A stretch of DNA of 64,000 nt from a virus (lineage: Duplodnaviria; Heunggongvirae; Uroviricota; Caudoviricetes), in the IMG/VR virus record IMGVR_UViG_3300046692_000144, positions 85,621-149,620 of that record; one strand, written 5' to 3'. The position numbers were made by a program, and so were the translations under genes. This document shows positions 13,023 through 35,790 of this stretch, piece by piece. The notes under the pieces were generated by a model. The model ran no database searches, was not told where the DNA came from, and saw only the letters and a list, made by a program, of their open reading frames with translations. Numbering within the stretch: the stretch's first letter is position 1; each line of letters opens with the position of its first letter.

Positions 13023-13538
13023 TTAGCTCCGGGTAATTACGTTGAGTGCATCTTCTTGGGTATTAGAACCCGGTTGGTCTTTTAGCATGCTCTTGACCAT
13101 ATTCATATTCTTACGGGCGTTCATAGCAGTATAGAACTTTGGAACTGCAATACCTGCACCGGCTGCTCGTACGGCAAGATCTGTTATACCTTTGCTTTTG
13201 AATACGGGTGCAGGCTCATTGAATGGTTCTCCTGCCCCGAGAGCTTCATACTTGGAGACTGAATGGTGGTACGCATTCATTGTTCCTTTTACGGTATCCA
13301 AGATAGGGTCTGCCAATATTAACGCAGTACCTGCAACTCCTAACCCAATATCCTTCCAGAACCGACTATCGGTTTTAGCACCTGCACGGATAGTATGCCC
13401 GTGATCCGTTAGGAGTTCGACCTTCTCGGAAAGTGGCAACGCCTTAAATCTAGGATCGGTAATAACACGATCCAAGCTTAGACCAGAAGCTTGATAATTA
13501 CTAATAAGCTTAAGGAACATGTCTTCATGTAGGGTCAT
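13023..13538 (-). CDS. Hypothetical late protein with hydrophobic Gly/Ala segments
   Basis: 171 aa; IGLGVAGTALILA segment. Confidence 0.65.
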   Translation of the reverse strand: MTLHEDMFLKLISNYQASGLSLDRVITDPRFKALPLSEKVELLTDHGHTIRAGAKTDSRFWKDIGLGVAGTALILADPILDTVKGTMNAYHHSVSKYEALGAGEPFNEPAPVFKSKGITDLAVRAAGAGIAVPKFYTAMNARKNMNMVKSMLKDQPGSNTQEDALNVITRS

Positions 13539-14482
13539 ACAGTATCCAGTTCACCGTCAGCATCTCCGTTGTAGACAGGCTGACGTAGTTTTGTACCAGT
13601 AGGCGTCATCGCCTCAACCTGGATCAGCTTGTTTAACCAAGCGTTAGGGTGTTTGAAAATGTCTTCTCTGGTTCTACGGTCAAACCCCGTACCTACTTTG
13701 CCAACCTCACGTCCGGTAGCATCTTCCAACAGGAGAGCACCCGCACTAGGCTTAGGCTTACCGGAGATATCCTTCTCTTGAAGAATGGCTTTGACCTTTA
13801 GATTATAGTGGTTCTTATGCTTAAGTTTAACCCTCGGGTTCTTTGCCTCTGGAGCAGTAGGATCAAGGGTTATGACGCCTTCACGGCCTTCTTTTTTAGA
13901 TTTCTCAATGAGAGCGTTCATCCCCTCCACACCATGAGCATACTCAGGATGGAACATGAGATTGGTATCTCCGAAATCAGAGATCAATCCTTGTATGTGA
14001 GGAAGCTTATCGTTGAAGGTACTTACTCTAGGTTCGATCATGTCGAACACTACTGCTCGGATAGGACCGTCTTGAGACTGTTCCCTAATAGAACGCTCAG
14101 GAAGAGAGTTAAGTAGGCCAGATACTCGGGCATGTGACTCAAGGGCATAAGGATCGTGACCTGTATGAATAAGCTCTACGTTGTAAACCTTTCCTGCCTG
14201 AGACGGCAAAGTCTTGGCCAAGTGAGGAACTCGGTCAGCCTTCTCTATAACTGCACCTGTCACGGAAGGCCTACGGGAAACAAACGTAGGAATTCCGTAA
14301 TGGTCATAGCATAGAAAATACGAAGCGCCATCATATTTCAATGACGATAGCTTTGGTTTGTCATCACTACCTTTCTTGAAAGTGTCGTTGTATTTAGCAC
14401 GGGAATGCATAGAAGCAGATTTCTCCAGGTACGGGTTTGGATGTGGTGAGTTCATTGTAGTACCTGGAGAAGTATTGGTCAT
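13535..14482 (-). CDS. lig: Minimal ATP-dependent DNA ligase with N-terminal NPYLEKSAS tag
   Basis: KYDG motif I, YNVEL, VVFDMI, EGVI, RVKLK, OB-fold GKVGTGF. Confidence 0.9.
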   Translation of the reverse strand: MTNTSPGTTMNSPHPNPYLEKSASMHSRAKYNDTFKKGSDDKPKLSSLKYDGASYFLCYDHYGIPTFVSRRPSVTGAVIEKADRVPHLAKTLPSQAGKVYNVELIHTGHDPYALESHARVSGLLNSLPERSIREQSQDGPIRAVVFDMIEPRVSTFNDKLPHIQGLISDFGDTNLMFHPEYAHGVEGMNALIEKSKKEGREGVITLDPTAPEAKNPRVKLKHKNHYNLKVKAILQEKDISGKPKPSAGALLLEDATGREVGKVGTGFDRRTREDIFKHPNAWLNKLIQVEAMTPTGTKLRQPVYNGDADGELDTV

Positions 14483-15024
14483 TTAGAAAGAGAAGCTGCT
14501 TTCTGCAAATATTGGTTATGAACGCCTTCTAGGTATTCATCCGCCTTCTCTTCGCCACGGCCAAGAGCATGCTTAGTAGCAGAGTAAGCACCAAGACCCA
14601 TACCTGTGATACCTGCACCCATGATTACCAACGGATGCTTGGTCAGCAGCCTTGCCGAAGCCACCCCACCTACTCCACCCAAAAGCATTGCCCCTGCACC
14701 TTTCCAGGAAGCACCGTTATGAGCAAGACCGTCTGCCTTTCTGACCACGTCACTGCCGTAGTCTCGTTCAATGGTAGCGTTGATGTGACGGGTCTTCATT
14801 CGATCACGGACTAGACCATTCAGATCGGGTGTTACAACGTCACCGTTCTCATCTACGTAAGTCTCATCACGGAAGTCAGCGATAGCCTTCTGAGTTATAC
14901 GGCCTGGAATATGTCCTGCCCAATCACGGTGGTAGATCTCGTCAGCTTCTCGGTTGAGATTCTTACGGTAGTCTTTGAGATCTTGGTAGTGGCCTGCGAG
15001 TTTCTCTAGGTAGACGTTGGTCAT
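14479..15024 (-). CDS. NxYLEK-tagged probable internal head protein
   Basis: Starts MTNVYLEKLAG, ends NQYLQKAAS; glycine-zipper-like helices. Confidence 0.7.
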   Translation of the reverse strand: MTNVYLEKLAGHYQDLKDYRKNLNREADEIYHRDWAGHIPGRITQKAIADFRDETYVDENGDVVTPDLNGLVRDRMKTRHINATIERDYGSDVVRKADGLAHNGASWKGAGAMLLGGVGGVASARLLTKHPLVIMGAGITGMGLGAYSATKHALGRGEEKADEYLEGVHNQYLQKAASLSK

Positions 15025-15774
15025 TTACTTGTTCGCCTTTTCAATAGCTTTATTCTTTACATGCTTCGCCCAAGAAGCTGCGCCTACACCAGTTGCAGTA
15101 GCAGCTAAGTACGTACCGTATGCAGGGGCCATTTTCTTTAGGAACTTCTTAGCCACGCTGGCACCACGAGTCTTCAGGAGGTGTTTTGCAGGACTGAGAG
15201 ATGCTTGAGCCTCTTCCACTAGCATTGGTAGTGCAGAAGCAGCGACTGCGTACGGGGCTGCCTTTCGAACTTTCTCGTTATCGGAAGTAGCAGCATAACC
15301 GCCAGCCAATGCTCCTAGACCAAGAGCCGATCTTTGAGAAAGGGAGTGCATTATGAATTTACCCCTGACGCCTTTTCCACCGATGGCCTTCCGATACTTG
15401 TTGAAGCTGTGAGCGTGGCCATACTCATGCATTGCAAGGTCAGCACCTTTAGCATTTACGGTTGGACGCTTTACCCCCCTGAATCCAGGAGGGAGGTAGT
15501 GAGCAGCAAGCTCATGGTCGAACATCCCATTACCGCCCCTAATGACATGTCGTAGGTTTTTACTTTTCCGATAGGAGTTTACGTCTGACTCCGTAACTGC
15601 GGAGTTCCCTGCCAGGCCTTTGTGTGCGGCTCGTACCAGTCCATGGTTTATCGGGGTGGATAGGGCTATGGCCCCCGCAGTCGTCCCAACGACCGTACCG
15701 GTACGGGTCCACCCGTGTATGTGGTCCCTCTTTTTTTCAGTTGAAGCGATTTTCTCCAAGTAGATATTCATCAC
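15025..15774 (-). CDS. NxYLEK-tagged probable internal head protein, possible zincin-like metallopeptidase
   Basis: Starts MMNIYLEKIAS; contains HEYGH and a downstream EE.QAS. Confidence 0.6.
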   Translation of the reverse strand: MMNIYLEKIASTEKKRDHIHGWTRTGTVVGTTAGAIALSTPINHGLVRAAHKGLAGNSAVTESDVNSYRKSKNLRHVIRGGNGMFDHELAAHYLPPGFRGVKRPTVNAKGADLAMHEYGHAHSFNKYRKAIGGKGVRGKFIMHSLSQRSALGLGALAGGYAATSDNEKVRKAAPYAVAASALPMLVEEAQASLSPAKHLLKTRGASVAKKFLKKMAPAYGTYLAATATGVGAASWAKHVKNKAIEKANK

Positions 15775-16622
15775 TTCTTATCCGAAAGTACGCCTACGAT
15801 AAATTCTCGTGCTCCGTCACCAGGTTCACGTTTCTTAGCGACCTTCTCCAAGAAGACGTTAGACTCGCTCGCCTTTTTATCATGCCCCTTATACGCTCGG
15901 TAGGCCGCATGTCCTATCATGGCCACACCTGTACCGATAGCTACCTTGCGAGTTACCTTGGCCGCAATATTTGCACGATCTACCATCTTCGAGTTCGTAG
16001 TGGCCCCGGTCACAAGCTCAGACATGTATCCTTTTGAAAATGGCTTTCCAGCAGCTTTTGCCTTAGCCATATAGTTTTCACGATGCAGTTCAATAGCAGG
16101 CTTCATCTTCTCCGCTACCTTCTTACCAAGGTACTTCGAGCTTGCAGCAAGGCCGAGGCCAGCATAGCCTTCCATCGCTACGGACGCATCGTTGTTCTTA
16201 GCAGCAGCGGCCTTTTCAAGGTAGGGGTTCTTGTCGTCCAACGCTTTCTTCCTGAGAAATAGCCAAGCCTTCTCACCGTAATGTTCAGGGGCTTTTTTGA
16301 TTAAGAAACGATCACCGTTGTTTAGCTCAAGATGATAGTCATTGTTGATTGTCTGGGAACTACCTTTCTGAGCGTAGTCTATTACTTGGGTACCTGCCCC
16401 GTACTGACCGTCAGGGATAACGATGCTTGGAGTAGTGGCGTAATGGGCCGTATGGACTGGCTGCTCCCATAGGATCGTAGGTTTACCTACTTCCGGGAAC
16501 TCCTTTTTAGACGCCCACGAAAAAGCTTTGTCATCAATTACGATTCTATAGTCGTAATGTAATCCCGCTCGTTTAGCGTCGTGCTTCTGTCTAACGAAAA
16601 GTACTGGGGTCGGATTCTTCAT
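15771..16622 (-). CDS. LigD-type 3'-phosphoesterase domain fused to a tagged basic C-terminal segment
   Basis: QKHDAKRAGLHYDYRI..SWA, PVHTAHY, IPDGQYGAG; internal NPYLEKAAA and NVFLEKVAK. Confidence 0.85.
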   Translation of the reverse strand: MKNPTPVLFVRQKHDAKRAGLHYDYRIVIDDKAFSWASKKEFPEVGKPTILWEQPVHTAHYATTPSIVIPDGQYGAGTQVIDYAQKGSSQTINNDYHLELNNGDRFLIKKAPEHYGEKAWLFLRKKALDDKNPYLEKAAAAKNNDASVAMEGYAGLGLAASSKYLGKKVAEKMKPAIELHRENYMAKAKAAGKPFSKGYMSELVTGATTNSKMVDRANIAAKVTRKVAIGTGVAMIGHAAYRAYKGHDKKASESNVFLEKVAKKREPGDGAREFIVGVLSDKK

Positions 16623-16628
16623 TTTTCT

Positions 16629-16634
16629 ATTTTA
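16629..16634 (-). promoter_or_regulatory. Late promoter-like hexamer TAAAAT
   Basis: Exactly 6 nt before ATG 16622. Confidence 0.6.
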
Positions 16635-16654
16635 ACGGCGACCCTACCTTGATT

Positions 16655-16661
16655 GGTATAA
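16655..16661 (+). promoter_or_regulatory. Early-type promoter motif GGTATAA
   Basis: Back-to-back with the late motif at 16629. Confidence 0.7.
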
Positions 16662-16680
16662 GAGATATGGATAACAACAC

Positions 16681-17067
16681 ATGGGGAGATTTCGCATGCA
16701 ATCCAAAAGATACATATCTGATCTTGCAAGACTTACGTACATAGGTAAGGAAAAACTCTTAAGTCTATTTCGAGTGAAGCCTACAAAACCTGTGGATATC
16801 ATAAAGGCGGAACTGGAAGCAATGGTTACCCGTCTTGCTCAGGATCATAAGACCTCAGAAGAGGCTATCAAAAATCTCATGACGGAGGCCTCGGAGTTAC
16901 TAGAGGAGCTCAGAGTTCGTGAGGAAGAAGAGATGAAACAGTGGAGGGCCAATGCAAGTGAGTGGCTGCTTAAGGCAGGAGTCGATTCAAAATGTGTTGA
17001 GGAGTTCCTCAAAAATCCTACATTGGCAAACCTCGAAGAGTTACGTAAAAAATACCCTTGCTCTTAA
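16681..17067 (+). CDS. Hypothetical coiled-coil protein
   Basis: 128 aa between promoter motif and terminator. Confidence 0.7.
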   Translation: MGRFRMQSKRYISDLARLTYIGKEKLLSLFRVKPTKPVDIIKAELEAMVTRLAQDHKTSEEAIKNLMTEASELLEELRVREEEEMKQWRANASEWLLKAGVDSKCVEEFLKNPTLANLEELRKKYPCS

Positions 17068-17080
17068 AAGTAAGGGACTG

Positions 17081-17107
17081 GAGGCCCGTAACTGGGCTTC
17101 TTTTAGC
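17081..17107 (+). terminator. Intrinsic terminator
   Basis: GAGGCCC-GTAACT-GGGCTTC plus TTTTAGC. Confidence 0.75.
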
Positions 17108-17130
17108 CTGTCAATAAAACAAACCGTTTT

Positions 17131-17137
17131 GGTATAA
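17131..17137 (+). promoter_or_regulatory. Early-type promoter motif GGTATAA heading the RT operon
   Basis: GGTATAACTAAAGTGTAG. Confidence 0.7.
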
Positions 17138-17152
17138 CTAAAGTGTAGCACC

Positions 17153-17389
17153 TTGTTTTACGATGAGAAGCCCACTCAAGGAAATTGTAAACCAAACCCA
17201 ACCCTCAAAGAAAAACTAAATACGGTAAACATGACTATGAACGCAGGCACTTTTGATTTTTCCGCAATGTCCTCTGAACAACTGCTCGCCCTTGTCAAAC
17301 ATCTGGCCTTGGAAGTATGGGCTAGATCTAGCGGGGTGAGAAAGGTAGTTGTACATGTTGTGAAACGAATCAAAGGCTGGTTTATCTAA
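17153..17389 (+). CDS. Small hypothetical protein (start uncertain; may be ATG 17231)
   Basis: First ORF of the RT operon. Confidence 0.5.
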   Translation: MFYDEKPTQGNCKPNPTLKEKLNTVNMTMNAGTFDFSAMSSEQLLALVKHLALEVWARSSGVRKVVVHVVKRIKGWFI

Positions 17390-17410
17390 CCGAGCTTAGG
17401 AGGCTCTCTA

Positions 17411-17908
17411 ATGGCGATTCGCCCTAGCACCACCGCTTCACCTCGGGATACGTTGAAATGTCTTCGACCTCACAAGGGTCTTATGTGTTTTAACTCCGAG
17501 GCAGGCCACTACGAGAAATACGCAGTGGTCACGGGAACCCCTAACAACGCGGGGTTCGTTCCTCTTGAAAAGCATGTAGGAGTAGTGCGCCTTGGCGTTA
17601 TCTACTTGAAGAATATCGGATCTGTTCGGAGTGGTTTCTATGCTGTCTTCCCTCGTGACATCTACCGTCGAAGAATCGACGCAAGACCCGTTCGACGACT
17701 CTCAATTGAGGAAGCAACTCTCCTCCTTGGAGGGAACCTTGATCACCTTGGATTGCCAGAAGCAACCCTTGGAGAACTCGATGCCTCAATCGAACCGCGA
17801 ACTATCGAAACTTCTCAGAGTGCAGAGCTCAGCGACGCTGACGTATGCTTCGAAGAACAAATCCGATCACTACAAGCTTCTGAAGATTCCGAAGAAGGGT
17901 GGTTATAG
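17411..17908 (+). CDS. Hypothetical RT-associated protein overlapping the RT gene
   Basis: AGGAGG SD; 165 aa with beta-rich core and acidic tail; 3' end overlaps the RT start. Confidence 0.65.
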   Translation: MAIRPSTTASPRDTLKCLRPHKGLMCFNSEAGHYEKYAVVTGTPNNAGFVPLEKHVGVVRLGVIYLKNIGSVRSGFYAVFPRDIYRRRIDARPVRRLSIEEATLLLGGNLDHLGLPEATLGELDASIEPRTIETSQSAELSDADVCFEEQIRSLQASEDSEEGWL

Positions 17909-18743
17909 GGTCGTTTACAACCCAAGCAATCTCATGCGTTTGTTGCAGTTCCGAATCTTGAAGGAGGTCCTAGAGAAGTACTTCGAGATCCCGGATTACA
18001 TTTACGCTTTCGAACGGGATAAATCTATCCCGGTCATGGCGAAGATGCATGAGGGTAGCTTGCAAGTTGTAAGCCTTGACATCAAGGACTACTTTCCGAG
18101 CATTAAGCAAAACGTTCTGAAAGACTTGATGCAAAGCGTCGGCTTCGGAGAGTCTCCGGCCCGCACCTTGTCGGAGCTTATGACCTTAGGGCCAAATGTT
18201 CCGCAGGGTGGATTGACCAGTCCAAAGATTAGCAACGTGGTTGCCTCTAGGACTTTCGGGCCTGTGGTAAAGAAGTTCTGCGAAGACAGGGGCCTGGCCC
18301 TTACCATCTACGCAGATGACATCACGATTTCTTCGAAGGCAGACTTCAACGCCCAAGAAGCTATCGAGTTCGTGTCTGGGGTTCTCGTCGGCTTTGGCTT
18401 CCGGGTCAATAAGGCTAAGACGAAAGTAATGAAGAAAGGTACTCGACGCAGTCGTTTGTATGTGTGCGGTACCGTTGTGAACGAGAAGGTGAATCTCCTC
18501 CGGAACGAGCGTCTTCGGTTAAGAGCCGTCGTTCACAACAGTGTTAAAAATGGTCTGGAAGCAGAAGCGTCTAAGACCGGTCTCACCGCAAACGAATTCT
18601 TAATGAGAGTTCGTGGCAAGCTCAACTGGTTTGGACAGCTAAACCCTGAAGGGTCTTCGAAACTCATCGAACGATTCCAAGGGGCATGCACGGATTGGGA
18701 AGTGATCAACCGATCAACTCCTTACCAACACCAGCCTGGGTAA
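17781..18743 (+). CDS. Retron-type reverse transcriptase (frame open from 17610; ATG 17781 has a GGAG SD)
   Basis: IPKKGGYR, AFERDKS, SLDIKDYFPSI, VPQGGLTSP, YADD, GFRVN..KT, YVCGTVVN. Confidence 0.9.
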   Translation: MPQSNRELSKLLRVQSSATLTYASKNKSDHYKLLKIPKKGGYRVVYNPSNLMRLLQFRILKEVLEKYFEIPDYIYAFERDKSIPVMAKMHEGSLQVVSLDIKDYFPSIKQNVLKDLMQSVGFGESPARTLSELMTLGPNVPQGGLTSPKISNVVASRTFGPVVKKFCEDRGLALTIYADDITISSKADFNAQEAIEFVSGVLVGFGFRVNKAKTKVMKKGTRRSRLYVCGTVVNEKVNLLRNERLRLRAVVHNSVKNGLEAEASKTGLTANEFLMRVRGKLNWFGQLNPEGSSKLIERFQGACTDWEVINRSTPYQHQPG

Positions 18744-18860
18744 AACGCTGTACAACGCAAACTGTTTGGAATCTGAACATGAACAGTAAGCTATGGGCTT
18801 CTCAAGATTCGATCAAAGAAAACACTGTGCTTCAACACCAATAAAGACTACACCCGTTTT

Positions 18861-18898
18861 GAGGATTCCTCGGCGAAAGCCGGGGGCCTCGTTTTAGC
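18861..18898 (+). terminator. Intrinsic terminator of the RT operon
   Basis: Long GC stem with GAAA loop plus GTTTTAGC. Confidence 0.75.
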
Positions 18899-18918
18899 CC
18901 AGATGAGGTCTCTAAATT

Positions 18919-18925
18919 GGTATAA
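18919..18925 (+). promoter_or_regulatory. Early-type promoter motif GGTATAA
   Basis: Upstream of 18959. Confidence 0.7.
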
Positions 18926-18958
18926 GTATTATGTAATGAAACTAGAGGTTGTACGCTA

Positions 18959-19345
18959 ATGAAAACCGTAATCTGGAATCGTCGCCTGATTGATGGATCA
19001 ATTCAGGAAGTCAGTTTTACAGCACTGTTTTCGGAAGATCACCAGTCTGTAGATACCTACTTAGAAGAAATGGCCAGGAGGGCAGGGGTTATCCGAAGCA
19101 AGGCAACATTCACGGAGGAGATGAGCCGAATTGAGCTTGCGTATGAAATCGATCTAATCTTTGCTAAAGACAGAGACGATATCATTAAGGCCAGTGAATA
19201 CTATACTGCCAAGGCGATGATCTTGGTGGTGCGATACGCCCTCTCGGACGAAAGGGATTCGCAGGAAGTAGCGCAGGAAACATTCAAACACTTCCTTGCC
19301 AAGGTTAAATTCAACCCGTCATCTGATGTTGAGATGGCTGCATGA
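18959..19345 (+). CDS. Hypothetical protein
   Basis: 128 aa with its own promoter motif and terminator. Confidence 0.7.
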   Translation: MKTVIWNRRLIDGSIQEVSFTALFSEDHQSVDTYLEEMARRAGVIRSKATFTEEMSRIELAYEIDLIFAKDRDDIIKASEYYTAKAMILVVRYALSDERDSQEVAQETFKHFLAKVKFNPSSDVEMAA

Positions 19346-19348
19346 ACT

Positions 19349-19370
19349 GAGGGCTTCCGCCCTCTTTTAA
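19349..19370 (+). terminator. Intrinsic terminator
   Basis: GAGGGC-TTCC-GCCCTC-TTTT. Confidence 0.7.
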
Positions 19371-20509: not shown

Positions 20510-20515
20510 AATCTC

Positions 20516-20521
20516 AGTTTA
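20516..20521 (-). promoter_or_regulatory. Late promoter-like hexamer TAAACT
   Basis: Exactly 6 nt before ATG 20509. Confidence 0.55.
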
Positions 20522-20783: not shown

Positions 20784-21630
20784 AAGAACCCGTCGCGTGC
20801 GATATTGCAGCGGCGGTTCTTTTTAGGTGTGCAGAAGTAGGATTACCTAGATACTTATACGCTTCATGCTTAAAGCCGCCTACCGGAACCTTAGACTCTG
20901 CACCATGTTTGAGAGGGTTTGTGATGAAAGTCTTCTTGAGGAAATCTACGGCTTTCTTACCGTACTTGTTTCCTTGAACAGCCTTGCTCCCTGCAAGAGC
21001 TTTTGCACCGTCGAGAATAGCTGCACCAGGTTCAATAGGAGCTACGGACATTGCGCTTAGCAACGGCAGTGCCTGAGTGTGCTTGCCGGGAACAAAGTTA
21101 GATCCTACTGGGACCTTACCATGACCAATGTTCTTAGCAATGTTACTGAGCAACGGATGACTTTTGTCCTTCCACAGTTTTGACAATTCACCTAAGTGCT
21201 TATCGCTAAGGTTTTTGATCGTCGGCAGGTGCTTCTGAAGAACTCCGTGAACCGCCTTAACTACGGGGTCCTCGTGCATATTCAGTTTCTTAAGCGTATC
21301 GAACTTACCTTCTACAGCCATTCGTGCAGCAGCTCGTTGACGTTTGGTAGCACCATGAAGGACTTCACTGAGATGACCGCCAGCCTCATGAGCAGCGGTG
21401 TGAGCCGCAGCCACGTCTGGGGTAATTACCGACGTTGCACTCCTCGCAGCCTTTGCTTTGAAAGATTTGTTTACTACACCGTGGTATCCCTCAGTAAAAG
21501 AGTTGGCGAGGTACTTCGCAACCTTCTTACTCTTGAGAGCTTGGTTGGTAGCGATGTTCTGTGCAAGGTGAGAAATGGCAGTACCAGCCAAGAGGCTAGA
21601 CTGTTTCTCCAGGTAGGGGTTCTTAGTCAT
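20776..21630 (-). CDS. NxYLEK-tagged basic probable internal head protein
   Basis: Starts MTKNPYLEKQSS; rich in Lys, His and Ala. Confidence 0.7.
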   Translation of the reverse strand: MTKNPYLEKQSSLLAGTAISHLAQNIATNQALKSKKVAKYLANSFTEGYHGVVNKSFKAKAARSATSVITPDVAAAHTAAHEAGGHLSEVLHGATKRQRAAARMAVEGKFDTLKKLNMHEDPVVKAVHGVLQKHLPTIKNLSDKHLGELSKLWKDKSHPLLSNIAKNIGHGKVPVGSNFVPGKHTQALPLLSAMSVAPIEPGAAILDGAKALAGSKAVQGNKYGKKAVDFLKKTFITNPLKHGAESKVPVGGFKHEAYKYLGNPTSAHLKRTAAAISHATGSST

Positions 21631-21937: not shown

Positions 21938-21984
21938 CTAGATTGAGGAAGAACCTCACTACTATTCTCTACGAGACCTTACCA

Positions 21985-22746
21985 ATGAACCAACTTGCTT
22001 TAGCTGTTCAGGCTCCAAACCCGCTCGACATCTTCAACTTCGAAGGTAACGAAGTCCGGACCTCCTTGATAAACGGAGAGCCTTGGTTCGTATGCGCTGA
22101 TGTATGTGCGGCGTTGGATATCGGTAATAATCGAATGGCGATATCTCGACTAGACGAGGAAGACCGGGGCGTAACTACTACTGACACCCCCTCCGGACGG
22201 CAGGAGATGGGGGTAATTAATGAATCAGGTCTTTACTCCCTGATCTTCAAAAGCAGAAAACCAGAAGCTATACGGTTCAAGCGCTGGGTGACTTCTGTTC
22301 TTATCCCTGGAATTCGCAAGAAGGAATTCGTACACGTTTCCGAAGCTCAAGTCCCAGTCAGTGTTCTTACTCAGGTCCTGGCAGCGTTCGAAACCTTGCG
22401 AAGCGACATGGCTGATATCCGTAAGGAGCTTCATGACTCCAGGCCACAAGTACCTGCGATTGCTGCTCCGGTTCTCAGTAAACCTGCTCGTGAACCTGTG
22501 AAAAGCCATCTCTTCTCAACTGCAAAGTTGGCGAACAAGCTAGGGGTTACGGCATCCCGTTTGAACGCAATCTTTGAAGTTCTCGGCTATCACACTCGGG
22601 TAGCCAACCGCTATGCTCCAACCCAGAAAGCTATGAGAATGGCTGAGGTAGTTGGTAAGACCATAGATCGTGGCCAAGGTGCCAGAGACAAGTACCTCTG
22701 GAAAGAAGAGATCATCTCCAAGATTCCAAAGAAATACTACATGTAA
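21985..22746 (+). CDS. Bro-N domain / antirepressor-like DNA-binding protein
   Basis: FNFEGNEVRT..INGEPWFVCADVC..L, INESGLYSLIFKSRKPEA..FKRWV; KilA-C/ANT-like C-terminus. Confidence 0.9.
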   Translation: MNQLALAVQAPNPLDIFNFEGNEVRTSLINGEPWFVCADVCAALDIGNNRMAISRLDEEDRGVTTTDTPSGRQEMGVINESGLYSLIFKSRKPEAIRFKRWVTSVLIPGIRKKEFVHVSEAQVPVSVLTQVLAAFETLRSDMADIRKELHDSRPQVPAIAAPVLSKPAREPVKSHLFSTAKLANKLGVTASRLNAIFEVLGYHTRVANRYAPTQKAMRMAEVVGKTIDRGQGARDKYLWKEEIISKIPKKYYM

Positions 22747-23525: not shown

Positions 23526-23696
23526 TTAGTGAAGAGAAGCTTTGATTCGTTGGATCAACGGCGTTTTGGCCATTGAGTGAAACCCGAAATTGCGTTTCAT
23601 CGAGCCCGCAGACCGAATGAGACCGGCAGCTCCACCAACCTTAGTAACCGGCAGCTTCAGGATCGAAGCCGCCTTCTCTAGATACCGATTATCCAT
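23526..23696 (-). CDS. 56 aa NxYLEK-tagged basic peptide (not in track)
   Basis: TAATG overlap with the sheath stop; starts MDNRYLEKAAS. Confidence 0.7.
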   Translation of the reverse strand: MDNRYLEKAASILKLPVTKVGGAAGLIRSAGSMKRNFGFHSMAKTPLIQRIKASLH

Positions 23697-28662: not shown

Positions 28663-28677
28663 GTTGTCCTCTTACAA

Positions 28678-29370
28678 TTAGTAGTAATACGATTGAGGAA
28701 GAGCTTCGCTCTTCTTTTTGCCATTGGCGTAAGCGAGACTGATACCTGCAATTCCACCGTAGGCACCTACTCTTGCTTTGCTCTGTTGGCCATGTAGCTT
28801 CTTTAGTTTATCAAGGTTTGCACCAGTCACCATGTCTTTTTGAGACTTTCTTTTGGCGCTGACGAATTTATGATAAGCAGGAGTATTATCCCCGAAAGTA
28901 TCCAAGCCCATTTGTTTGATCTTACCGCCATTGGCAGTGTTCAAAACATCCAGACCAGTGTTAACAACTTTTGCAGTACCCTTGGCAGCCAAGCTACCTG
29001 CTTTTTTAGCGTAGGTCACAGTCTTCTTTGCGAGGCTGACTGAGTTAGAAGCAACTCCCGCCTGCTTGTTCAAGAAGAGTTCTTGCATGTTCTTTGAGGC
29101 TATTCGGTTCTGGTGTTCTCGGTACGCACTCGCCCCGTAGATACCGGCAGCAGCAATCGCAGCCAGCCCTCCACTGGTCTTCATTCTGGCCTTGAAGGTC
29201 CTTTGTCCAGAATTGTGGATGCGCTTAGTCAGACCCTCGACCGTATCATTGTTGGCAATCGCTCGCTCAAAGTGATACTTCCGGGCCGTAAGGTCCTTGT
29301 GTTCTTTACCAGTTAAGTCCTTCCAAAAGTCATACATGGAAGCGGCTTTTTCGAGATATGGATTTGACAT
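28678..29370 (-). CDS. NxYLEK-tagged basic probable internal head protein
   Basis: Starts MSNPYLEKAAS; two Gly/Ala hydrophobic helices. Confidence 0.7.
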   Translation of the reverse strand: MSNPYLEKAASMYDFWKDLTGKEHKDLTARKYHFERAIANNDTVEGLTKRIHNSGQRTFKARMKTSGGLAAIAAAGIYGASAYREHQNRIASKNMQELFLNKQAGVASNSVSLAKKTVTYAKKAGSLAAKGTAKVVNTGLDVLNTANGGKIKQMGLDTFGDNTPAYHKFVSAKRKSQKDMVTGANLDKLKKLHGQQSKARVGAYGGIAGISLAYANGKKKSEALPQSYYY

Positions 29371-29376
29371 GTTTCT

Positions 29377-29382
29377 ATTTTA
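29377..29382 (-). promoter_or_regulatory. Late promoter-like hexamer TAAAAT
   Basis: Exactly 6 nt before ATG 29370. Confidence 0.6.
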
Positions 29383-29403
29383 CCTCGCTAATCTACAGAT
29401 ACG

Positions 29404-29430
29404 AAAAAGGCCCCAAACGAGGGGCCTTTC
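29404..29430 (-). terminator. Intrinsic terminator after the capsid gene
   Basis: AGGCCCC stem-loop followed by a T-tract on the minus strand. Confidence 0.8.
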
Positions 29431-29457
29431 TCTGATTTGCCTTTCGGCCAACTTTGA

Positions 29458-30345
29458 TTAGAAGTTGATAACAGCAGCGCCGTTGACGTTGCCGAAACCG
29501 ATGCCGACAGACTCGTAAGTCTTGAAGGATAGCAGGTCAGCTTCAGTCTTCAGATATACCATCGCGTCTTGCATGATGTACATCTGACCCAGGTACTGGG
29601 TAGGAGCGAAAACGATCATCTGGTTGTTCGGCAGGATATCGTTCTTGTTGGTAACGATGATCTGGTTGCCGTACGGGGTAGCTACACCAGTTTGGCCCAT
29701 GAACAGAGCCGAAGCTGCGTCCGAACCGATCTGGGTGGCTGGCTGAGCCATGAAGTCAGCATACATTTCCTGAGTCATCAGGATCTTGCCGACAGGCAGT
29801 TGCTTAGCCAATAGTTTCTTCACGCCAGCTTGGAAGTTGACCATGTTGAAACCACCAGAGATGGTGTAAACGTTGCTAGCAGCGGTAGCCATTGCCAGGA
29901 CGTTAGCGTAGAAGCTGGTATCTTCTACCTTTTGGATATCTTTAACACTGTTCTCTTGCAGAACGGTGCGGATATCGGTGCGGTAGGTAGCCAGTTCGAA
30001 CTTCGACTTCTTGAACTCTTTACTCTCGATCTTCGAGAAGTTCACGGCGTAACGATCGCCTTTGAAGTAGCGCAGTTCTGCACGACCACGGAAGCCCATC
30101 GAGGCTGCTACCGAATCAGGTTCTTTCTCGATGATGATCTGAGGTTCGTCGGTCAGACCACGATCCAGATCAGCAGCGGTAACCATTTGCGGTTCCATGA
30201 TTTTGCGGGTAAAGCCGTCTTCACGAAGCTTCTGACGCACGAATGCGCTAGCAGCTACCGAAGCTTCCTTCTCCATGCCGTTATCGACCTTATCGATGAA
30301 CGATTGGTTGAGGAATTGAACGTTAGTAGTTTCAGTACCGTACAT
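29458..30345 (-). CDS. Major capsid protein (HK97-like)
   Basis: 295 aa, biased codon usage, strong SD and terminator, downstream of protease, scaffold and decoration genes; N-terminal MEKEAS. Confidence 0.8.
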   Translation of the reverse strand: MYGTETTNVQFLNQSFIDKVDNGMEKEASVAASAFVRQKLREDGFTRKIMEPQMVTAADLDRGLTDEPQIIIEKEPDSVAASMGFRGRAELRYFKGDRYAVNFSKIESKEFKKSKFELATYRTDIRTVLQENSVKDIQKVEDTSFYANVLAMATAASNVYTISGGFNMVNFQAGVKKLLAKQLPVGKILMTQEMYADFMAQPATQIGSDAASALFMGQTGVATPYGNQIIVTNKNDILPNNQMIVFAPTQYLGQMYIMQDAMVYLKTEADLLSFKTYESVGIGFGNVNGAAVINF

Positions 30346-30355
30346 GAGTCGCTCC

Positions 30356-30772
30356 TTATTTAACCAAGATAATCAGTGAGTTATCTTCGGCAACGATTTC
30401 CAGAACGGAGCCAACAACCGGGTCAGTACCAGCTACGCCAAGGGCGAACTTGCCGGACTTAGCAGTGACTTCAGAACCAGGAACGTAGGCACCGGCTGCA
30501 TAGCCAGTCGAAGCGACACGAGCAATGTAGTTGCTCCACAGAACTACGCACTTGCCAACTTGGGCAGACGAAGAACTGTCACCATTACCTTGAACAACAA
30601 CGCCAACTTTGTTAGAGGCGGATGCGCCCGACAGGTCAACGGTACCGTCAGTTTGTTTAGCAACAACATCACCGTTCTTAAGGGTAACGCCTGCTTTGAT
30701 GGGCTCGACGCGATCCAGGGCACCGTCTTGTGGGTAACCGCGAACTACTTCGAAGGCATATTCCATCTTCAT
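30356..30772 (-). CDS. Head decoration/cement protein
   Basis: 138 aa (IKAGVTLKNGDVV...) directly upstream of the capsid gene. Confidence 0.65.
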   Translation of the reverse strand: MKMEYAFEVVRGYPQDGALDRVEPIKAGVTLKNGDVVAKQTDGTVDLSGASASNKVGVVVQGNGDSSSSAQVGKCVVLWSNYIARVASTGYAAGAYVPGSEVTAKSGKFALGVAGTDPVVGSVLEIVAEDNSLIILVK

Positions 30773-30836
30773 ACTAGTTTTCTCTCCTAAAGAGTTTTAC
30801 TAATCTAGGATTAATTCCTAGACTAAGACTGTCCTG

Positions 30837-31361
30837 TCACCGACCTAAACAGAAACGTTCAATCGGGTCCAGTGAATCAGCAGTTGGGCTGCCTGAGCTG
30901 TGACCCATTTCCCACGGGGAACCCGTGATGTGCGCCATTTTTTCCAAAATTCCAGTGTCAGCCATGATCTTAACTTGGTCATTGCTGAAACCGTACGATT
31001 GGAGGTTTTCTGCATCAGGACCAGAAATGGCGGCTGCCTTACTGAACCCTTCGCTATTTTTAATTTTAACTTGCAGATCTGCAATAGTTCCTTCAAGCTC
31101 CTCAATATATGAAGCTGACTTCTCTAATACAGTTACTACAAACTGAGGCTCAATAGTCACCGGTAGGGGAGCCAGGTCTTTAAGCTCTTCAGCTTGTTTG
31201 ACCATGGACAACGAATCTTCCGGGCTAACCCCAGCTTCCACCAAAGCTTCGGCAGCGGCCAGAGTAGTCTGCTCAAAGAGCGCAACTTGCTCAGCCTGCT
31301 TTTCGAGTTGTTCGGTGATTTGCTCCGCTTGTTCACGAAGCAGTTGTGAAATCTCAGACAT
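30837..31361 (-). CDS. Scaffold-like head protein
   Basis: Acidic coiled coil with EKQA/VKQA/EKSAS motifs; start at MSEISQ has a GAGGA SD. Confidence 0.55.
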   Translation of the reverse strand: MSEISQLLREQAEQITEQLEKQAEQVALFEQTTLAAAEALVEAGVSPEDSLSMVKQAEELKDLAPLPVTIEPQFVVTVLEKSASYIEELEGTIADLQVKIKNSEGFSKAAAISGPDAENLQSYGFSNDQVKIMADTGILEKMAHITGSPWEMGHSSGSPTADSLDPIERFCLGR

Positions 31362-31390
31362 CTGGGTGTGTCCTCTGCTATGCATGTATT

Positions 31391-31768
31391 TTAATGCGTC
31401 GAAACAAGTTCGGCTGCTTTGTGAAGGTATTTGTTCTTTCGAGAGTCATCAAGAGCGGCAACGCCCTTCATCGCCCCGTAAGAACCGATAGCTCCTAAAA
31501 CGTGGGCACCGACTTCGCTACCTAGGTGAGTACCTGTGATAACTGCGTCCTTACCGAACAATTTTCGACCTATGGCTTGAGCCATTGGTTTAGCAGCGAT
31601 TAGTTTACCCAGAGGTTTTGAACCTAGACGCCCGCCTATAAGGCCACCGGCAAGACCTGCGGCCACGCCAAGACCTTCTGACAGAGCAAAGGTTTTCTCA
31701 GTACTTGTGCGTTTCGGATTAAGAGGGAGTACCGCTTCAGCGATCTTCTCTAGATATACGTTTGACAT
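31391..31768 (-). CDS. NxYLEK-tagged glycine-zipper protein
   Basis: Starts MSNVYLEKIAE, ends NKYLHKAAE. Confidence 0.7.
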   Translation of the reverse strand: MSNVYLEKIAEAVLPLNPKRTSTEKTFALSEGLGVAAGLAGGLIGGRLGSKPLGKLIAAKPMAQAIGRKLFGKDAVITGTHLGSEVGAHVLGAIGSYGAMKGVAALDDSRKNKYLHKAAELVSTH

Positions 31769-31777
31769 GGTTCACCG

Positions 31778-31800
31778 AAAAAAGGCCCCGAAGGGCCTTC
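31778..31800 (-). terminator. Intrinsic terminator
   Basis: AGGCCC stem with TTCG loop (minus strand) and T-tract. Confidence 0.75.
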
Positions 31801-31807
31801 GTTTGTC

Positions 31808-32227
31808 TTACAGAGAAGCTTGGATCAGAGCAACAGCGTCGTCGAACGAATAACCTTCTTCGGTCAGTTCGTTGAAAGCAGCTTCTTTCTGAAGCTCAAG
31901 ATCGGCATCAGCAACTTGACCGAAAGCGGAGTAGAAATCCATACCACTTTCAACTAGCTCGTTCAGAGCAGCAGCCTTCTGAAGCTCAGCAACACGGTCG
32001 GTAGGAACCACTTCAGCAGATTGAGTTGCCAGGCCACGTTGCAGGGACTCAATAGTCTGGCCTTCAATGGTGTTACCCGATTGAAGAGCCGAGGCATTGA
32101 TAGCCTGTTGAGCAGCAGCGGTAGCTGCGTTCTGTGCGTGATGCAGTTGAGGTTGGGCAGGACCCTGAGTGCCTTCGGAGGCTTCTTTGATCAGGGCACG
32201 GATGTTTTGCATAAGGATATCGGACAT
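31808..32227 (-). CDS. Scaffold-like repeat protein, paralog of part of 32244..33683
   Basis: Two KxAA..EL...G.SF.DA repeats; DNA similarity to ~33030-33300. Confidence 0.65.
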   Translation of the reverse strand: MSDILMQNIRALIKEASEGTQGPAQPQLHHAQNAATAAAQQAINASALQSGNTIEGQTIESLQRGLATQSAEVVPTDRVAELQKAAALNELVESGMDFYSAFGQVADADLELQKEAAFNELTEEGYSFDDAVALIQASL

Positions 32228-32243
32228 TTTGTTCTCTCGGAGA

Positions 32244-33683
32244 TTAGGCCTGGACAGCGGCCAGAGCTTGGTTAAAGGTGTAGCCGTCGTTCATCAGTTC
32301 ACTCATGGCGGCTTCTTTGGTCATAGCTTTTTTAGCTGCTACGCCAGCACCGGCTGCAACAGCAGTACCACCGGCTACGGCAAGTTTACCCTTGTTACGC
32401 TTAACAGCGTTAGAGGCCATATGCTTACCACGAATTTTAGCCATGGTTGGATTGGTTTTGCGCAAACTCTTATATTTAGCCACATCTTTGCCTAGTTGGC
32501 CAACTTCTTTTCGAAGAGGGTCTGCAACTTTGTTAGCAAGACTTTTAATGGTGGAGCCTACGCTAGCTTCTTTGACCAGTTCAACTGCATCATCAAACGA
32601 GTGACCTTCGGCCAAAAGTTCAGACAGTGCAGCTTGCTTGCTCATAGCTTTGTTTACACCTGCGGTAACTGCACCAGCAGCAAGAGATCCACCGGCTACG
32701 CTCAGAGGAATAACGTTGCGCTTCAAAGCACTTTTCAAACGAGCTTTACCGACGGTTGAGGCATCGCCTGGCGAGTGCTGCTTCATGTACTTGTACGCAG
32801 AGACGTCATCTTTAAGGTTGCGACCCTCGGCCTTAACTGCGCCAACAGCAGCGCCGCCTTTAGCCTTGATGGTGTTCAGGGCGCCTTTAGCGAGGTCACC
32901 TAGACCAGCTTCTTTGATCATCTCAGCAGCGTCTTCGAAGCGGTAGCCTTCATCTAGCAGACCCTGGAAAGCAGCTTGCTTGTCCATTTCTTCGTACTGG
33001 GATTCTTCAACTTCAGAAGCAGCTTTGATCAGGGCAACTGCGTCGTCAACCGAATAACCTTCTTCGGTCAAAGCGTGGAAGGCAGCTTCTTTCTGAAGCT
33101 CTTCGTCAGCCATAGATACCAGAGAAGCAGCATCATAGAAAGAGTGGCCTTGGGTGACCAGTTCGGTAACCGCAGCAGCTTTCTGCATGTTGTCTTCTAC
33201 ACGGTCAACGAGGTCTACGCTGGTAGCGGTAGCAGATGGAGTGGTCAAACCTTTCTGAATAGACTCAGTTGTCTGAGATTCAACAGTGCCACCGCTTTGT
33301 TCAGCGTTAGCATTTACTTGGGTCTGGGCAGCGGCGAGTTCAGCATTTTCTTGGTGAGCAAGATGCGGCTGTGCTTCGACGGTGCTGGCTTCTTTGACCA
33401 AAGTGGTTTGTACGGAAGCAGCAAGCTCAGAAAGCTTATCGCCCAGAATTACTTCGGGTTCAGCGACAACTTCAGATGCAGCTTTCTCCATCAGACGTTG
33501 GGCCAGTTGACGGCCTAGGTCACTAGCTTCACCGGCAAGGGCGGAAGCAGACTTAGTCATCAGGGCTGACCGCAGCTCTTCGGCAACGTTCGGAACGTTG
33601 ACTTCAGGAGCTTCGCTAGCCTGCTTCTCTTGACCTTCCGAACCGGACAGATCAGCGATAAGCTGGTTGATATCAAAATTCAT
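32244..33683 (-). CDS. Scaffold/core-like repeat polyprotein
   Basis: Five KxAA..EL..EG.SF.DA repeats and two basic Gly/Ala inserts. Confidence 0.65.
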   Translation of the reverse strand: MNFDINQLIADLSGSEGQEKQASEAPEVNVPNVAEELRSALMTKSASALAGEASDLGRQLAQRLMEKAASEVVAEPEVILGDKLSELAASVQTTLVKEASTVEAQPHLAHQENAELAAAQTQVNANAEQSGGTVESQTTESIQKGLTTPSATATSVDLVDRVEDNMQKAAAVTELVTQGHSFYDAASLVSMADEELQKEAAFHALTEEGYSVDDAVALIKAASEVEESQYEEMDKQAAFQGLLDEGYRFEDAAEMIKEAGLGDLAKGALNTIKAKGGAAVGAVKAEGRNLKDDVSAYKYMKQHSPGDASTVGKARLKSALKRNVIPLSVAGGSLAAGAVTAGVNKAMSKQAALSELLAEGHSFDDAVELVKEASVGSTIKSLANKVADPLRKEVGQLGKDVAKYKSLRKTNPTMAKIRGKHMASNAVKRNKGKLAVAGGTAVAAGAGVAAKKAMTKEAAMSELMNDGYTFNQALAAVQA

Positions 33684-33757
33684 TCTAATTCCTCGTTTCT
33701 TAACCCGGAGTATGGGGCTTAGTTAAGCAAGCCAGGTGCCTGCTACTGATTTCTAGT

Positions 33758-35353
33758 TTAACTCGGATTACCTTTGACGATTTGACTATGAGCTGCGCTA
33801 AGCACCTTCAAAGCCACTGTCAATTTAGCATTTCCTTTACTTGGAGACTGTAACGCAGATACTGCCTTGGACAGAGCCTTGAGCGGTACGGTAGCCTTAC
33901 GATCTTCAAAAGACATTTCATGTGCAGCAGACATGCTTGCCATCTTAACAATGGTAGGCATACTACGTTCCTGGGACTGAGCGAGACGCTTCTCGATTAT
34001 AGAGTTAATGTACGCTTTTGCCCATAGAGCAGCACCGCCAATAGCAATAAGAGTCGAGATCGGATTCTCCGCAGCAGCCTGAAGTAAAGTGCGTTCAGGA
34101 TTCGCCAAGTGTCTCTGGCGATCCAGGTCTCTACGAATATCTTCTTCTCTGATAGGGATTTTAGGACCCATACCGGAATAACCAGTAGTAGTAACGTATG
34201 CACGCTTCTCTACGAACTCAGGGAATAGTGAACTAGTGTCCTGGTACTTACTAAGTACCTGACTAACCAGAGGACTCACTTTACGATCTACGTTCATCTC
34301 AGTATCTGGAATAGAAATACCAGAAAGCTTTGATTCGTGCAGGGCCTTGAGAACCTTCGAACCAATTCCAGGGCCGCCGTGGCCCATACGGAATGCAATG
34401 ATCTCCGCAAGGAACTTCAGGCTAGGGCTGATGCCTAGTTCACCGAAGGTCTGGAAGAGTTCATCCATAGGCACTGATTCGAGCTTACGAACATCCTCAA
34501 TGTCTGGGTCCTGAATCTGAGCAAGGATATTCTCCATGTTCTTATCAGTGCCCTGAACGTAGCCTTCGATCTCTTTGATTAGTTCGGAGACTTTGGCAAG
34601 GGATGCTTTCTTAACTCGATCTTCGCCATAGCTAAGACCTTCTTCTTCACCCAGCAACGCAGAGGATACTGCACCATCTTCGTTTGCAACTTTCTGCAAT
34701 ACCGAGCTGGTGATGTCCGCAGGTTTAACTACGATACTGATGTCGAAGAAACGCAGTGGAGCAGAGTTAATAGACATGACCCGACGGCCATCCGGCATTA
34801 CGCGACCCAAGTGTTGTTTCAGGTGGACGCAGTACTCTTGACGGGTGTGGGCTTTGTTATGGCAAATAGAGCAAACATCGTAGGGTGTCTTACACGCCAT
34901 GGATGTTGCTGGGAAATCACCGGCTGCAATACGACTCTCCACGTCAGAACCAAGACCGCGATCTACTTCTGCAACCAATTCAACTCGGTGCATGCGTTCG
35001 TTGTACAAGGCAAAGATAACCCGACCGATAGCACGGGCAGGATCTTTGTTGATGTGGTGACGGAAAACGTGGGCCGGGGAGGTCTCAAAAGTCTTGTAGT
35101 AGAGCTTCAGAGTTTCTTCAGGGAAGTAGTCGCCATTGCGGTTAGGGCCGTAGAACTCACCGGCCCCCATCGCATTGATATGCAGATACATTTTCCCAGG
35201 CTGAATCTTTAGGTTGTCCATGACGTACGATTTGACTCGATCGTCAGCGGCAGCCTTGGTCAGTTCTTCCTGAATGCCGGGACCGCTCAGGATAGTTACC
35301 TGGAGATCTTCAGCGTCGAAGAATGAACTGCTATCAATGAGTTTGTACATCAA
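33758..35353 (-). CDS. Prohead maturation protease-like protein
   Basis: NRNGDYF, VFRHHINKD...IGRV, ATSMAC..YDVCSIC; heads the head operon. Confidence 0.75.
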   Translation of the reverse strand: MMYKLIDSSSFFDAEDLQVTILSGPGIQEELTKAAADDRVKSYVMDNLKIQPGKMYLHINAMGAGEFYGPNRNGDYFPEETLKLYYKTFETSPAHVFRHHINKDPARAIGRVIFALYNERMHRVELVAEVDRGLGSDVESRIAAGDFPATSMACKTPYDVCSICHNKAHTRQEYCVHLKQHLGRVMPDGRRVMSINSAPLRFFDISIVVKPADITSSVLQKVANEDGAVSSALLGEEEGLSYGEDRVKKASLAKVSELIKEIEGYVQGTDKNMENILAQIQDPDIEDVRKLESVPMDELFQTFGELGISPSLKFLAEIIAFRMGHGGPGIGSKVLKALHESKLSGISIPDTEMNVDRKVSPLVSQVLSKYQDTSSLFPEFVEKRAYVTTTGYSGMGPKIPIREEDIRRDLDRQRHLANPERTLLQAAAENPISTLIAIGGAALWAKAYINSIIEKRLAQSQERSMPTIVKMASMSAAHEMSFEDRKATVPLKALSKAVSALQSPSKGNAKLTVALKVLSAAHSQIVKGNPS

Positions 35354-35790
35354 TCTTCCTTCCTAATAATCGAAGGCCAGTAATCGCCAGCGACATGATT
35401 CCGATACAGATAACTCTTCACAGGACCCTCGGTAGCCGATTCACTGTCCAGAGTCTGAACATTTCCTGCGGAGGCCAGTCCAATGCCAGATACAGCACCC
35501 AAACCATAGCCTATGCCAGCACCTATAACGGAGTTAAGAACTCTGCCTTTCCAAGAACTCGCCATCAATGGTGATGTACCAATTAAACCACCTAGACCTG
35601 CTCCGATTACTCCGAAAACTTTAGCACCATCACTCTTCTGACTTTGGAAGTGGGGTTGCAACTGGGATATAGCAATGCGACGTCTAGCCGCATCCGTCAC
35701 ATGAAACTCCCACTCCCTATCCGGGTCGTTGTACACCCCGTCTTCCAGAGAGACCATTGCTGCAATTTTCTCAAGATAGACGTTAGTCAT
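35350..35790 (-). CDS. NxYLEK-tagged glycine-zipper protein
   Basis: Starts MTNVYLEKIAA; two GxxxG-rich helices. Confidence 0.7.
   Translation of the reverse strand: MTNVYLEKIAAMVSLEDGVYNDPDREWEFHVTDAARRRIAISQLQPHFQSQKSDGAKVFGVIGAGLGGLIGTSPLMASSWKGRVLNSVIGAGIGYGLGAVSGIGLASAGNVQTLDSESATEGPVKSYLYRNHVAGDYWPSIIRKED

Follow-up and report, generated by a model that had tools for sequence, protein, structure and literature searches.

A conserved N-x-Y-L-E-K-x-A peptide on unrelated proteins of an uncultured Arash-like myophage: a candidate cleavable head-packaging tag related to the prohead protease

Results

Nine open reading frames around the head genes share a short peptide

This study concerns a short peptide, N-x-Y-L-E-K-x-A, hereafter referred to as the tag, which recurs on proteins encoded in a 64,000-nucleotide stretch of phage DNA (positions 85,621 to 149,620 of IMG/VR record IMGVR_UViG_3300046692_000144). 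This stretch is called the window in the following, and positions are those of the window unless stated otherwise. The source is a complete virus genome of 165,460 bp with direct terminal repeats from an uncultured phage. PHROG searches identified a tail sheath, a major capsid protein of 295 amino acids (aa), a head-maturation protease and RNA polymerase beta-like subunits. In the capsid protein, the phage shares 51-53% identity with Salmonella phage Arash and the Vibrio phages D69, D181 and D148, and the gene order of the head module is that of Arash gp218-gp226 (gene numbers in the Arash paper and in GenBank may be slightly offset), with the tagged genes inserted between the conserved ones. 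A megablast search with the head region returned no match among known phages. The genome carrying the tags is that of an Arash-like myophage.

A six-frame regular-expression scan of the window with the strict pattern N-x-Y-L-E-K-x-[AS] yielded nine sites, and the looser N-x-[YF]-L-x-K-x-[AS] yielded 12 sites on nine open reading frames (ORFs; Table 1). All are encoded on the minus strand between 14414 and 35784, and 200 shuffles gave an expectation of 0.0 strict and 0.14 loose sites. To extend the search to the whole genome, as a preliminary description of the window had proposed, a scoring matrix was trained on the tags of relatives only. It retrieved 13 sites with a clear gap in score, from 13.9 to 9.9, the thirteenth being located at the N-terminus of an SNF2 helicase encoded outside the window (genome positions 44816-46288). 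The genome thus encodes ten tagged proteins, nine in the window plus the helicase, and BLAST detected no mutual similarity among them. The original observation that nine otherwise unrelated proteins of the window share a motif is therefore real. Below the gap, a 159-aa ORF outside the window (G000 62038-62517, plus strand) opens with M-x-x-NQRLEKLAD, a degenerate tag-like N-terminus with a score of 9.9.

Eight of the window tags and that of the helicase are located at or near the N-terminus, two are C-terminal and two internal; in seven window ORFs and in the helicase the tag starts at residue 2-4. That most copies are terminal, as first described, holds for the N- and C-terminal ones, while the two tags of the 283-aa protein are internal. 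In the two C-terminal variants Glu is replaced by Gln or His. Two placements needed refinement. The tag of the DNA ligase is present, but starts at residue 16 of a translationally coupled ORF, or at residue 7 if counted from an internal Met, and the copy NRYLEKAAS is not part of the 869-aa sheath protein but belongs to a separate 56-aa ORF that begins at the sheath stop codon. Among 85 tag sites from relatives, Lys is present in all (the pattern used for collection required it) and Ala in 84. Synonymous codons vary between the copies (AAC/AAT, TAC/TAT, five different Leu codons, GAG/GAA, AAA/AAG); thus, selection acts on the peptide, and a DNA-level element as the conserved object was ruled out. 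Judged only from strand, clustering and neighboring genes for virion proteins, late expression of the tagged genes is suggested.

Table 1. Tagged proteins and proteins with core sites in the window. Residue numbers refer to the protein concerned.
Protein	Position	Strand	Tag or core sites	Remarks
286-aa protein, last-but-one gene of the ligase operon	12160..13020	-	5 core sites	Arash gp242 ortholog, 35% identity, E 1.8e-43
ATP-dependent DNA ligase, 315 aa	13535..14482	-	tag NPYLEKSA, 14414-14437, residue 16	KYDG adenylation motif; phrog_114, E 2e-20; ATGA start/stop overlap with upstream gene
Basic glycine-zipper protein, 181 aa (p181)	14479..15024	-	tags NVYLEKLA, 14995-15018 (N-terminal); NQYLQKAA, 14494-14517 (C-terminal variant)	tagged at both ends
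Metallopeptidase-like protein, 248 aa	15025..15771	-	tag NIYLEKIA, 15745-15768, residue 2	HEYGH at residue 115
LigD 3'-phosphoesterase (LigD-PE) protein, 283 aa	15771..16622	-	internal tags NPYLEKAA, 16206-16229; NVFLEKVA, 15837-15860	N-terminal LigD 3'-phosphoesterase domain, PF13298, E 2.8e-8, above Pfam cut-off
Basic protein, 284 aa	20776..21630	-	tag NPYLEKQS, 21598-21621, residue 4	L003 ortholog tagged
Basic protein, 56 aa	23526..23696	-	tag NRYLEKAA, 23667-23690, residue 3	directly after sheath gene; L003 ortholog tagged
Basic protein, 230 aa	28678..29370	-	tag NPYLEKAA, 29341-29364, residue 3	directly after major capsid gene
Major capsid protein, 295 aa	29458..30345	-	core MEKEAS, 30259-30276, residues 24-29	phrog_2522
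Head-module protein, 182 aa	30837..31385	-	3 core sites	
Glycine-zipper protein, 125 aa (p125)	31391..31768	-	tags NVYLEKIA, 31739-31762 (N-terminal); NKYLHKAA, 31412-31435 (C-terminal variant)	
Scaffold paralog, 139 aa	31808..32227	-	2 core sites	
Scaffold-like protein, 479 aa	32244..33683	-	8 core sites [LM]-x-K-x-A-[SA]	positional ortholog of Arash gp223
Prohead protease with scaffold-like tail, 531 aa	33758..35353	-	core sites, see text	phrog_18299, E 4.4e-8; catalytic domain about residues 36-215
Glycine-zipper protein, 146 aa	35350..35790	-	tag NVYLEKIA, 35761-35784, residue 3	gene overlaps protease start
Head-module proteins, 183 aa and 338 aa	35801..37382	-	1 and 2 core sites	Arash gp221 and gp220 orthologs by position
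Portal-region protein			1 core site	

The core of the tag is concentrated in head-assembly proteins

A reduced form of the tag, hydrophobic-x-K-x-A-(S/A/G), is referred to here as the core; Lys and Ala are invariant in it, while Glu is not conserved. The genome holds 41 core sites where 6.9 are expected, and 24 of the 41 fall into the head module, which accounts for 7% of the proteome. The same kind of concentration in the head region is found for L-E-K-x-A in the complete genomes of the untagged phages Arash and D69. In the 479-aa scaffold-like protein several core sites open repeats of about 35 aa with the pattern K-x-A-A...EGYSFDDA...LIK-x-AS. Both scaffold proteins of the window, the 479-aa and the 139-aa one, and the Arash and D69 orthologs as well, end in one such repeat, and by analogy to the scaffold of P22 this terminal unit may be a capsid-binding helix-turn-helix.

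In the major capsid protein, residues G23, K26 and A28 of the core site are invariant across 27 relatives with identities down to 40%. Structural modeling places this site at the break between two N-terminal helices, where it starts the helix formed by residues 25-43; the model speaks neither for nor against a removal of residues 1-28.

The prohead protease resembles T4 gp21 and herpesvirus assemblins and carries core sites itself

The protease of the head module combines a catalytic domain with a scaffold-like tail. Sequence searches of PDB and Pfam returned nothing useful, and the identification is by fold comparison alone. An AlphaFold model of the protease domain (mean predicted local distance difference test score, 77.7) matched T4 gp21 (5jbl; Z 11.2, root-mean-square deviation 3.0 over 131 residues) about as well as the assemblins of varicella-zoster virus (1vzv; Z 11.0) and pseudorabies virus (4v08, Z 10.9; 4v07, Z 10.4). 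In the alignment of homologs, H99 and S150 are invariant.

Core sites in the protease are located at residues 31 (LTKAAA), 219 (LQKVAN), 381 (VEKRAY) and 468 (IVKMAS). In 36 homologs a core site lies near residue 31, and K220, V221 and A222, which follow the catalytic domain, show complete or almost complete conservation. The copies at 219, 381 and 468 of 531 residues are in line with a layout of release and maturation sites, the one at 219 being located on a predicted core strand. A complex prediction for residues 36-214 of the protease with the tagged 56-aa protein reached a score of 0.09 against a mark of 0.32, which weighs neither way.

The domain (34571-35350) also contains an insertion after the strand with the catalytic Ser, in which C160, C163, C174 and H176 (C-x2-C...C-x-H) are invariant in 36 of 36 homologs. 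This cluster looks like a zinc-binding insertion, and we know of no such feature in T4 gp21 or the assemblins.

The N-terminal tag characterizes one clade of Arash-like phages

A capsid-protein profile search of IMG/VR retrieved 80 loci of relatives, which were grouped into clade A, with capsid proteins of 61-94% identity, and the more distant clades B and C. N-termini of the form M(x)NKYLEKIA[SAGE] are common in clade A. The capsid-related loci encode 95 unique tagged proteins in 45 clusters without mutual BLAST similarity; 94 of their 106 sites are located within the first 12 residues, and 83 at residue 2-4. An additional scan of the whole of IMG/VR for the exact string MNKYLEKIA matched 55 stretches on contigs of 4.6-193 kb, every one of them from a phage, with about 0.03 matches expected by chance (our own estimate, from roughly 42 bits and an assumed 10^11 or so bases). 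Together, these searches yielded 136 distinct tagged proteins in 57 clusters without mutual BLAST similarity. A comparison of the window with its closest relative, L003, reveals that the tags are kept while the remainder of the proteins has diverged. The other clade-A genomes each carry 6-9 strict tags, mostly clustered near the head genes, and controls with the reversed pattern gave none.

Among the ORFs around the capsid gene, a core site in the first residues occurs in 13.2% in clade A, compared to 0.8% and 1.3% in clades B and C, while the overall density of the core is similar in clades A and B. N-x-Y-L-E-K has no match in Arash, and the extended tag is absent from both Arash and D69. From the distribution of the sequences, the extended tag at the N-terminus is a character derived in the clade of this genome. 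More distant relatives, namely D69 (L002, 23211-23666) and L052-L055, have single N-terminal peptides that resemble the tag but show Leu at the position of Tyr (MDNVDTLLEKIAA..., MSNALLEKVAA...); they may represent early stages of the tag. A literature search for the tag string returned nothing relevant, and no paper describing the tag was found.

Tagged proteins are small and basic and include enzymes acting on DNA

The properties of the cargo, i.e. the tagged protein with the tag removed, were determined for all 136 proteins. Median length is 129 aa and median isoelectric point (pI) 10.1; the pI exceeds 9 in 92% of the cargo proteins versus 33% of the ORFs of the genome, Lys makes up 11.3% versus 5.8% of the residues, and glycine-zipper patterns are twice as frequent. 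This profile resembles that of internal or ejection proteins. The domains recognized on tagged proteins are an ATP-dependent DNA ligase, a LigD 3'-phosphoesterase, an SNF2 helicase, a metallopeptidase-like protein and glycine zippers; in addition, a tagged protein of L010 has a weak PARP/ART-like match (E 3e-4, below the Pfam cut-off).

The tagged SNF2 helicase is a full-length ortholog of Arash gp217 (38% identity, E 4e-108), to which it adds an N-terminal stretch of about 21 residues that contains the tag; the ortholog in L007 begins with MNKFLEKIA. In Arash virions, gp217 is among the most abundant proteins, together with the RNA polymerase subunits (38 unique peptides, 1148 spectra; PMC10585845). 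The split multi-subunit RNA polymerase beta/beta'-like genes of the window (42831-44651 and 51074-54430) are untagged. As the corresponding Arash proteins rank highest in abundance in the virion, the polymerase would have to be packaged by another route.

The tagged ligase belongs to an operon that runs from 16622 to 11636, contains four junctions at which stop and start overlap, and ends with orthologs of Arash gp242, labelled 'structural protein' in GenBank, and gp243. The same operon encodes three further tagged proteins. In the ESM Atlas, the structure of the 248-aa protein resembles a Zn_peptidase_2 cluster (TM 0.58/0.62), which is a lead only; the family of this protein is tagged in L010 and L013 as well, and from the model it is a possible candidate for a packaged metallopeptidase. 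The 283-aa protein consists of the phosphoesterase domain, an internal tag, a glycine-zipper segment and a second internal tag, and is probably a polyprotein. The 181-aa protein matched no Pfam or PHROG family. No orthologs of the ligase and the 248-aa protein were found in Arash or D69, an empty result that proves little.

Outside this operon, the glycine-zipper match of the 146-aa protein is weak. A GC-rich hairpin followed by a T run, resembling a terminator (31769-31800), is located directly upstream of the tagged 125-aa gene, in the interval that separates it from the scaffold paralog. The tail module on the minus strand is broken by a plus-strand gene for a 267-aa protein (21943-22746), with the tube gene on one side and the tagged 284-aa gene on the other; on visual inspection, the N-terminal part of this protein looks like a Bro-N/antirepressor-type domain.

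Discussion

Our analysis identified a peptide of eight conserved residues on proteins that otherwise have nothing in common, in a phage whose scaffold, protease and capsid protein carry the core of the same peptide. On balance the sequences incline us, with moderate confidence, to the view that the tag is the site preferred by the prohead protease, put to a second use as an N-terminal peptide that targets proteins to the capsid and is cleaved off. N-x-Y-L-E-K-x-A-(S/A) would be the optimal recognition form for this gp21/assemblin-fold enzyme with its scaffold-like tail. The minimal site, hydrophobic-x-K-x-A-small, would be ancestral throughout the Arash-like lineage, where it might label the proteins processed during head maturation, i.e. 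scaffold, protease, capsid N-terminus and portal-proximal proteins. In the subclade of the present genome the site would then have acquired the Asn and the Tyr and have been set directly behind the initiator Met in numerous proteins that are strongly basic and unrelated to one another. As a short propeptide, the tag might direct a protein to the scaffolding core inside the prohead and subsequently be removed, so that the trimmed cargo would stay in the head with the DNA, ready for entry into the host, while C-terminal and internal copies would serve the trimming of tails or the splitting of polyproteins.

Such a system would have its closest parallel in the capsid-targeting sequence (CTS) of phage T4, which is found on the internal proteins IPI-III and on Alt and is removed by gp21. 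In both cases a short N-terminal peptide is located on otherwise unrelated basic proteins of one phage, ends in a motif present in scaffold, capsid protein and protease as well, and is accompanied by a gene for a gp21-fold protease. The T4 CTS comprises ten residues in which those for targeting and those for processing are separable, and Alt has propeptides at both termini (PMC9026906). Similarly, some of the cargo described here is tagged at both ends, and the weak PARP/ART-like match in L010 recalls Alt. However, the T4 CTS is cut after Glu at L/I-x-E, whereas in the present motif Glu is not conserved and Lys and Ala are invariant; therefore, the tag is an analogue of the T4 CTS and not a member of it by sequence. 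The comparison with the T4 internal proteins drawn in the preliminary description thus stands for the logic, but not for the motif. The phages differ further in that the Arash-like lineage has a 295-aa capsid protein and a multi-subunit virion RNA polymerase, and a DNA ligase, a LigD phosphoesterase, an SNF2 helicase and a metallopeptidase-like protein as cargo are unlike that of T4.

With respect to the protease, the assemblins of herpesviruses (pUL26, UL80a) provide the second point of comparison. Assemblins are fusions of protease and scaffold that release themselves at YLQA-T and cut the scaffold at sites of the VQA-S type (PMC4498786). The phage enzyme shares their fold and the order of an N-terminal protease domain and a long scaffold-like tail, and its conserved core copies directly behind the catalytic domain and towards the C-terminus may correspond to the assemblin sites. 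The sites themselves are also alike, as an Ala followed by a small residue is preceded by an aromatic-aliphatic pair (YLQA-T in pseudorabies virus, YLEKIA-S here). In contrast to the assemblin site, the phage motif has two extra residues between Tyr-Leu and Ala, including the invariant Lys; moreover, the protease domain carries the Cys/His insertion, and in herpesviruses the site is not known to serve as a portable cargo tag. By analogy to the assemblins, our guess would be that the bond cut lies between K-x-A and the following S, the alternative being a cut after the Lys.

Other phages in which proteins travel inside the head are more distant parallels. Like phiKZ and SPN3US, the present phage is a large myophage that carries a multi-subunit RNA polymerase in the virion and, as we infer here, has many internal proteins processed by a gp21-like protease; however, the propeptides of those phages are mostly long (111-254 aa), share no short tag and are cut at S/A-x-E. 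The DarA, DarB and Hdf proteins of phage P1 include enzymes of the helicase and methyltransferase type that reside in the head and are delivered with the DNA, as might be the case for the cargo described here. Loading of these P1 proteins is hierarchical and depends on partner proteins, and we know of no short consensus tag shared by the head-packaged antirestriction proteins of P1.

Several points weigh against a cleavable targeting peptide. To begin with, cleavage, the bond cut, targeting, packaging and the ejection of cargo into the host are all steps that we infer. Wherever cleavage sites of phage enzymes related to gp21 have been mapped, the cut follows a Glu, at L/I-x-E in T4, S/A-x-E in phiKZ and A-x-E in SPN3US (PMC9026906, PMC10052503); a specificity for K-x-A would therefore depart from that of the phage members of the fold. 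The K-V-A of the protease is located on a predicted strand that aligns with the cores of assemblins, and in this model its conservation may be structural. Furthermore, Arash packages its gp217 helicase without any tag. Finally, the tagged ligase was the sole ligase detected in the genome and so may be required outside the capsid too, although the claim to be the only one is on weak ground, because a genome search with the Pfam ligase models found none, not even the tagged ligase.

The main rival follows from the observation that the motif opens helices, both in the capsid model and in the scaffold repeats, so that it could be a structural or docking element and not a scissile site. The tag would then be an uncleaved, N-capped amphipathic helix of two turns that mimics the first helix of the scaffold repeat and anchors its protein to the scaffold, the inner capsid or the DNA. 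Asn is a typical helix N-cap, the conserved Asn and Tyr exceed the core motif, and tags at both ends, as in the 125-aa and 181-aa proteins, would allow bivalent binding. An uncleaved helix leaves unexplained, however, why core sites bracket the protease domain and recur in its tail, where fusions of the assemblin type are cut, and why internal copies are located at the domain borders of likely polyproteins, and we regard this explanation as unlikely. The remaining readings are less likely. In one of them, the tag would be a cleavage site only, at which the protease trims or activates proteins that enter the prohead by other means, or whose trimming has no role in targeting. The core motif by itself accounts for the processing of scaffold and capsid protein, and the untagged helicase ortholog in Arash virions fits as well. 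There would, however, be no evident reason to place a removal site of about nine residues on 57 unrelated families unless it acted before its removal, and the strict position after the Met together with the invariant Asn and Tyr indicates a second function; we therefore consider trimming without targeting still somewhat less probable than docking.

A function unrelated to the virion, such as an N-terminal degron or a localization or membrane-targeting signal in the infected cell, appears quite improbable. The N-terminal position of the tag, the hydrophobic glycine-zipper segments of many tagged proteins and the obvious intracellular roles of a ligase and a helicase would be compatible with such a signal, but C-terminal and internal copies occur, the core is concentrated in head-assembly proteins, and the tagged genes reside among those for portal, protease, scaffold and capsid. 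Least of all do we expect a covalent-modification motif, in which the near-absolute conservation of Lys and Ala would fit a role of the Lys, with Asn and Glu close by, as acceptor for the ubiquitin-like conjugation cassette of the clade or for an isopeptide cross-link of the HK97 or SpyTag kind, since the cassette is also present in relatives without N-terminal tags and does not co-vary with them, and recognition by the protease accounts for the distribution without extra assumptions.

Returning to the cleavable targeting peptide, the proposal of a portable head-packaging and cleavage signal made in the preliminary description gains from the 57 tagged families, the core in scaffold, protease and capsid protein, the gp21 fold of the protease, the basic cargo and the helicase ortholog in Arash virions. 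Packaging and cleavage are deduced from these, and to speak of an injected proteome is an extrapolation. A more far-reaching scenario is possible, but distinctly more doubtful: the phage might possess a gp21/assemblin-fold protease with a herpesvirus-like specificity for K-x-A followed by S, whose site has become a readable address label by which the lineage delivers a kit for the repair and remodelling of DNA ends (ATP-dependent ligase, LigD-type 3'-phosphoesterase, SNF2 helicase, metallopeptidase) along with membrane-active glycine-zipper proteins, and by which foreign proteins could be loaded.

If the tag works as proposed, proteins that are carried in the capsid and delivered to the host could be predicted from sequence, which is rarely possible outside the T4-like phages; the contribution of the window described here lies in cargo made up of enzymes and in the connection to an Arash protein that has been measured in virions. 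As an eight-residue conserved peptide, the tag is also a candidate tool to pack foreign proteins into phage capsids. A gp21-fold enzyme that cuts at K-x-A would, if confirmed, join the phage and herpesvirus branches of these proteases by specificity besides fold, and the ligase, 3'-phosphoesterase, helicase and putative metallopeptidase would suggest a genome that arrives in the host with its own repair or anti-nuclease equipment.

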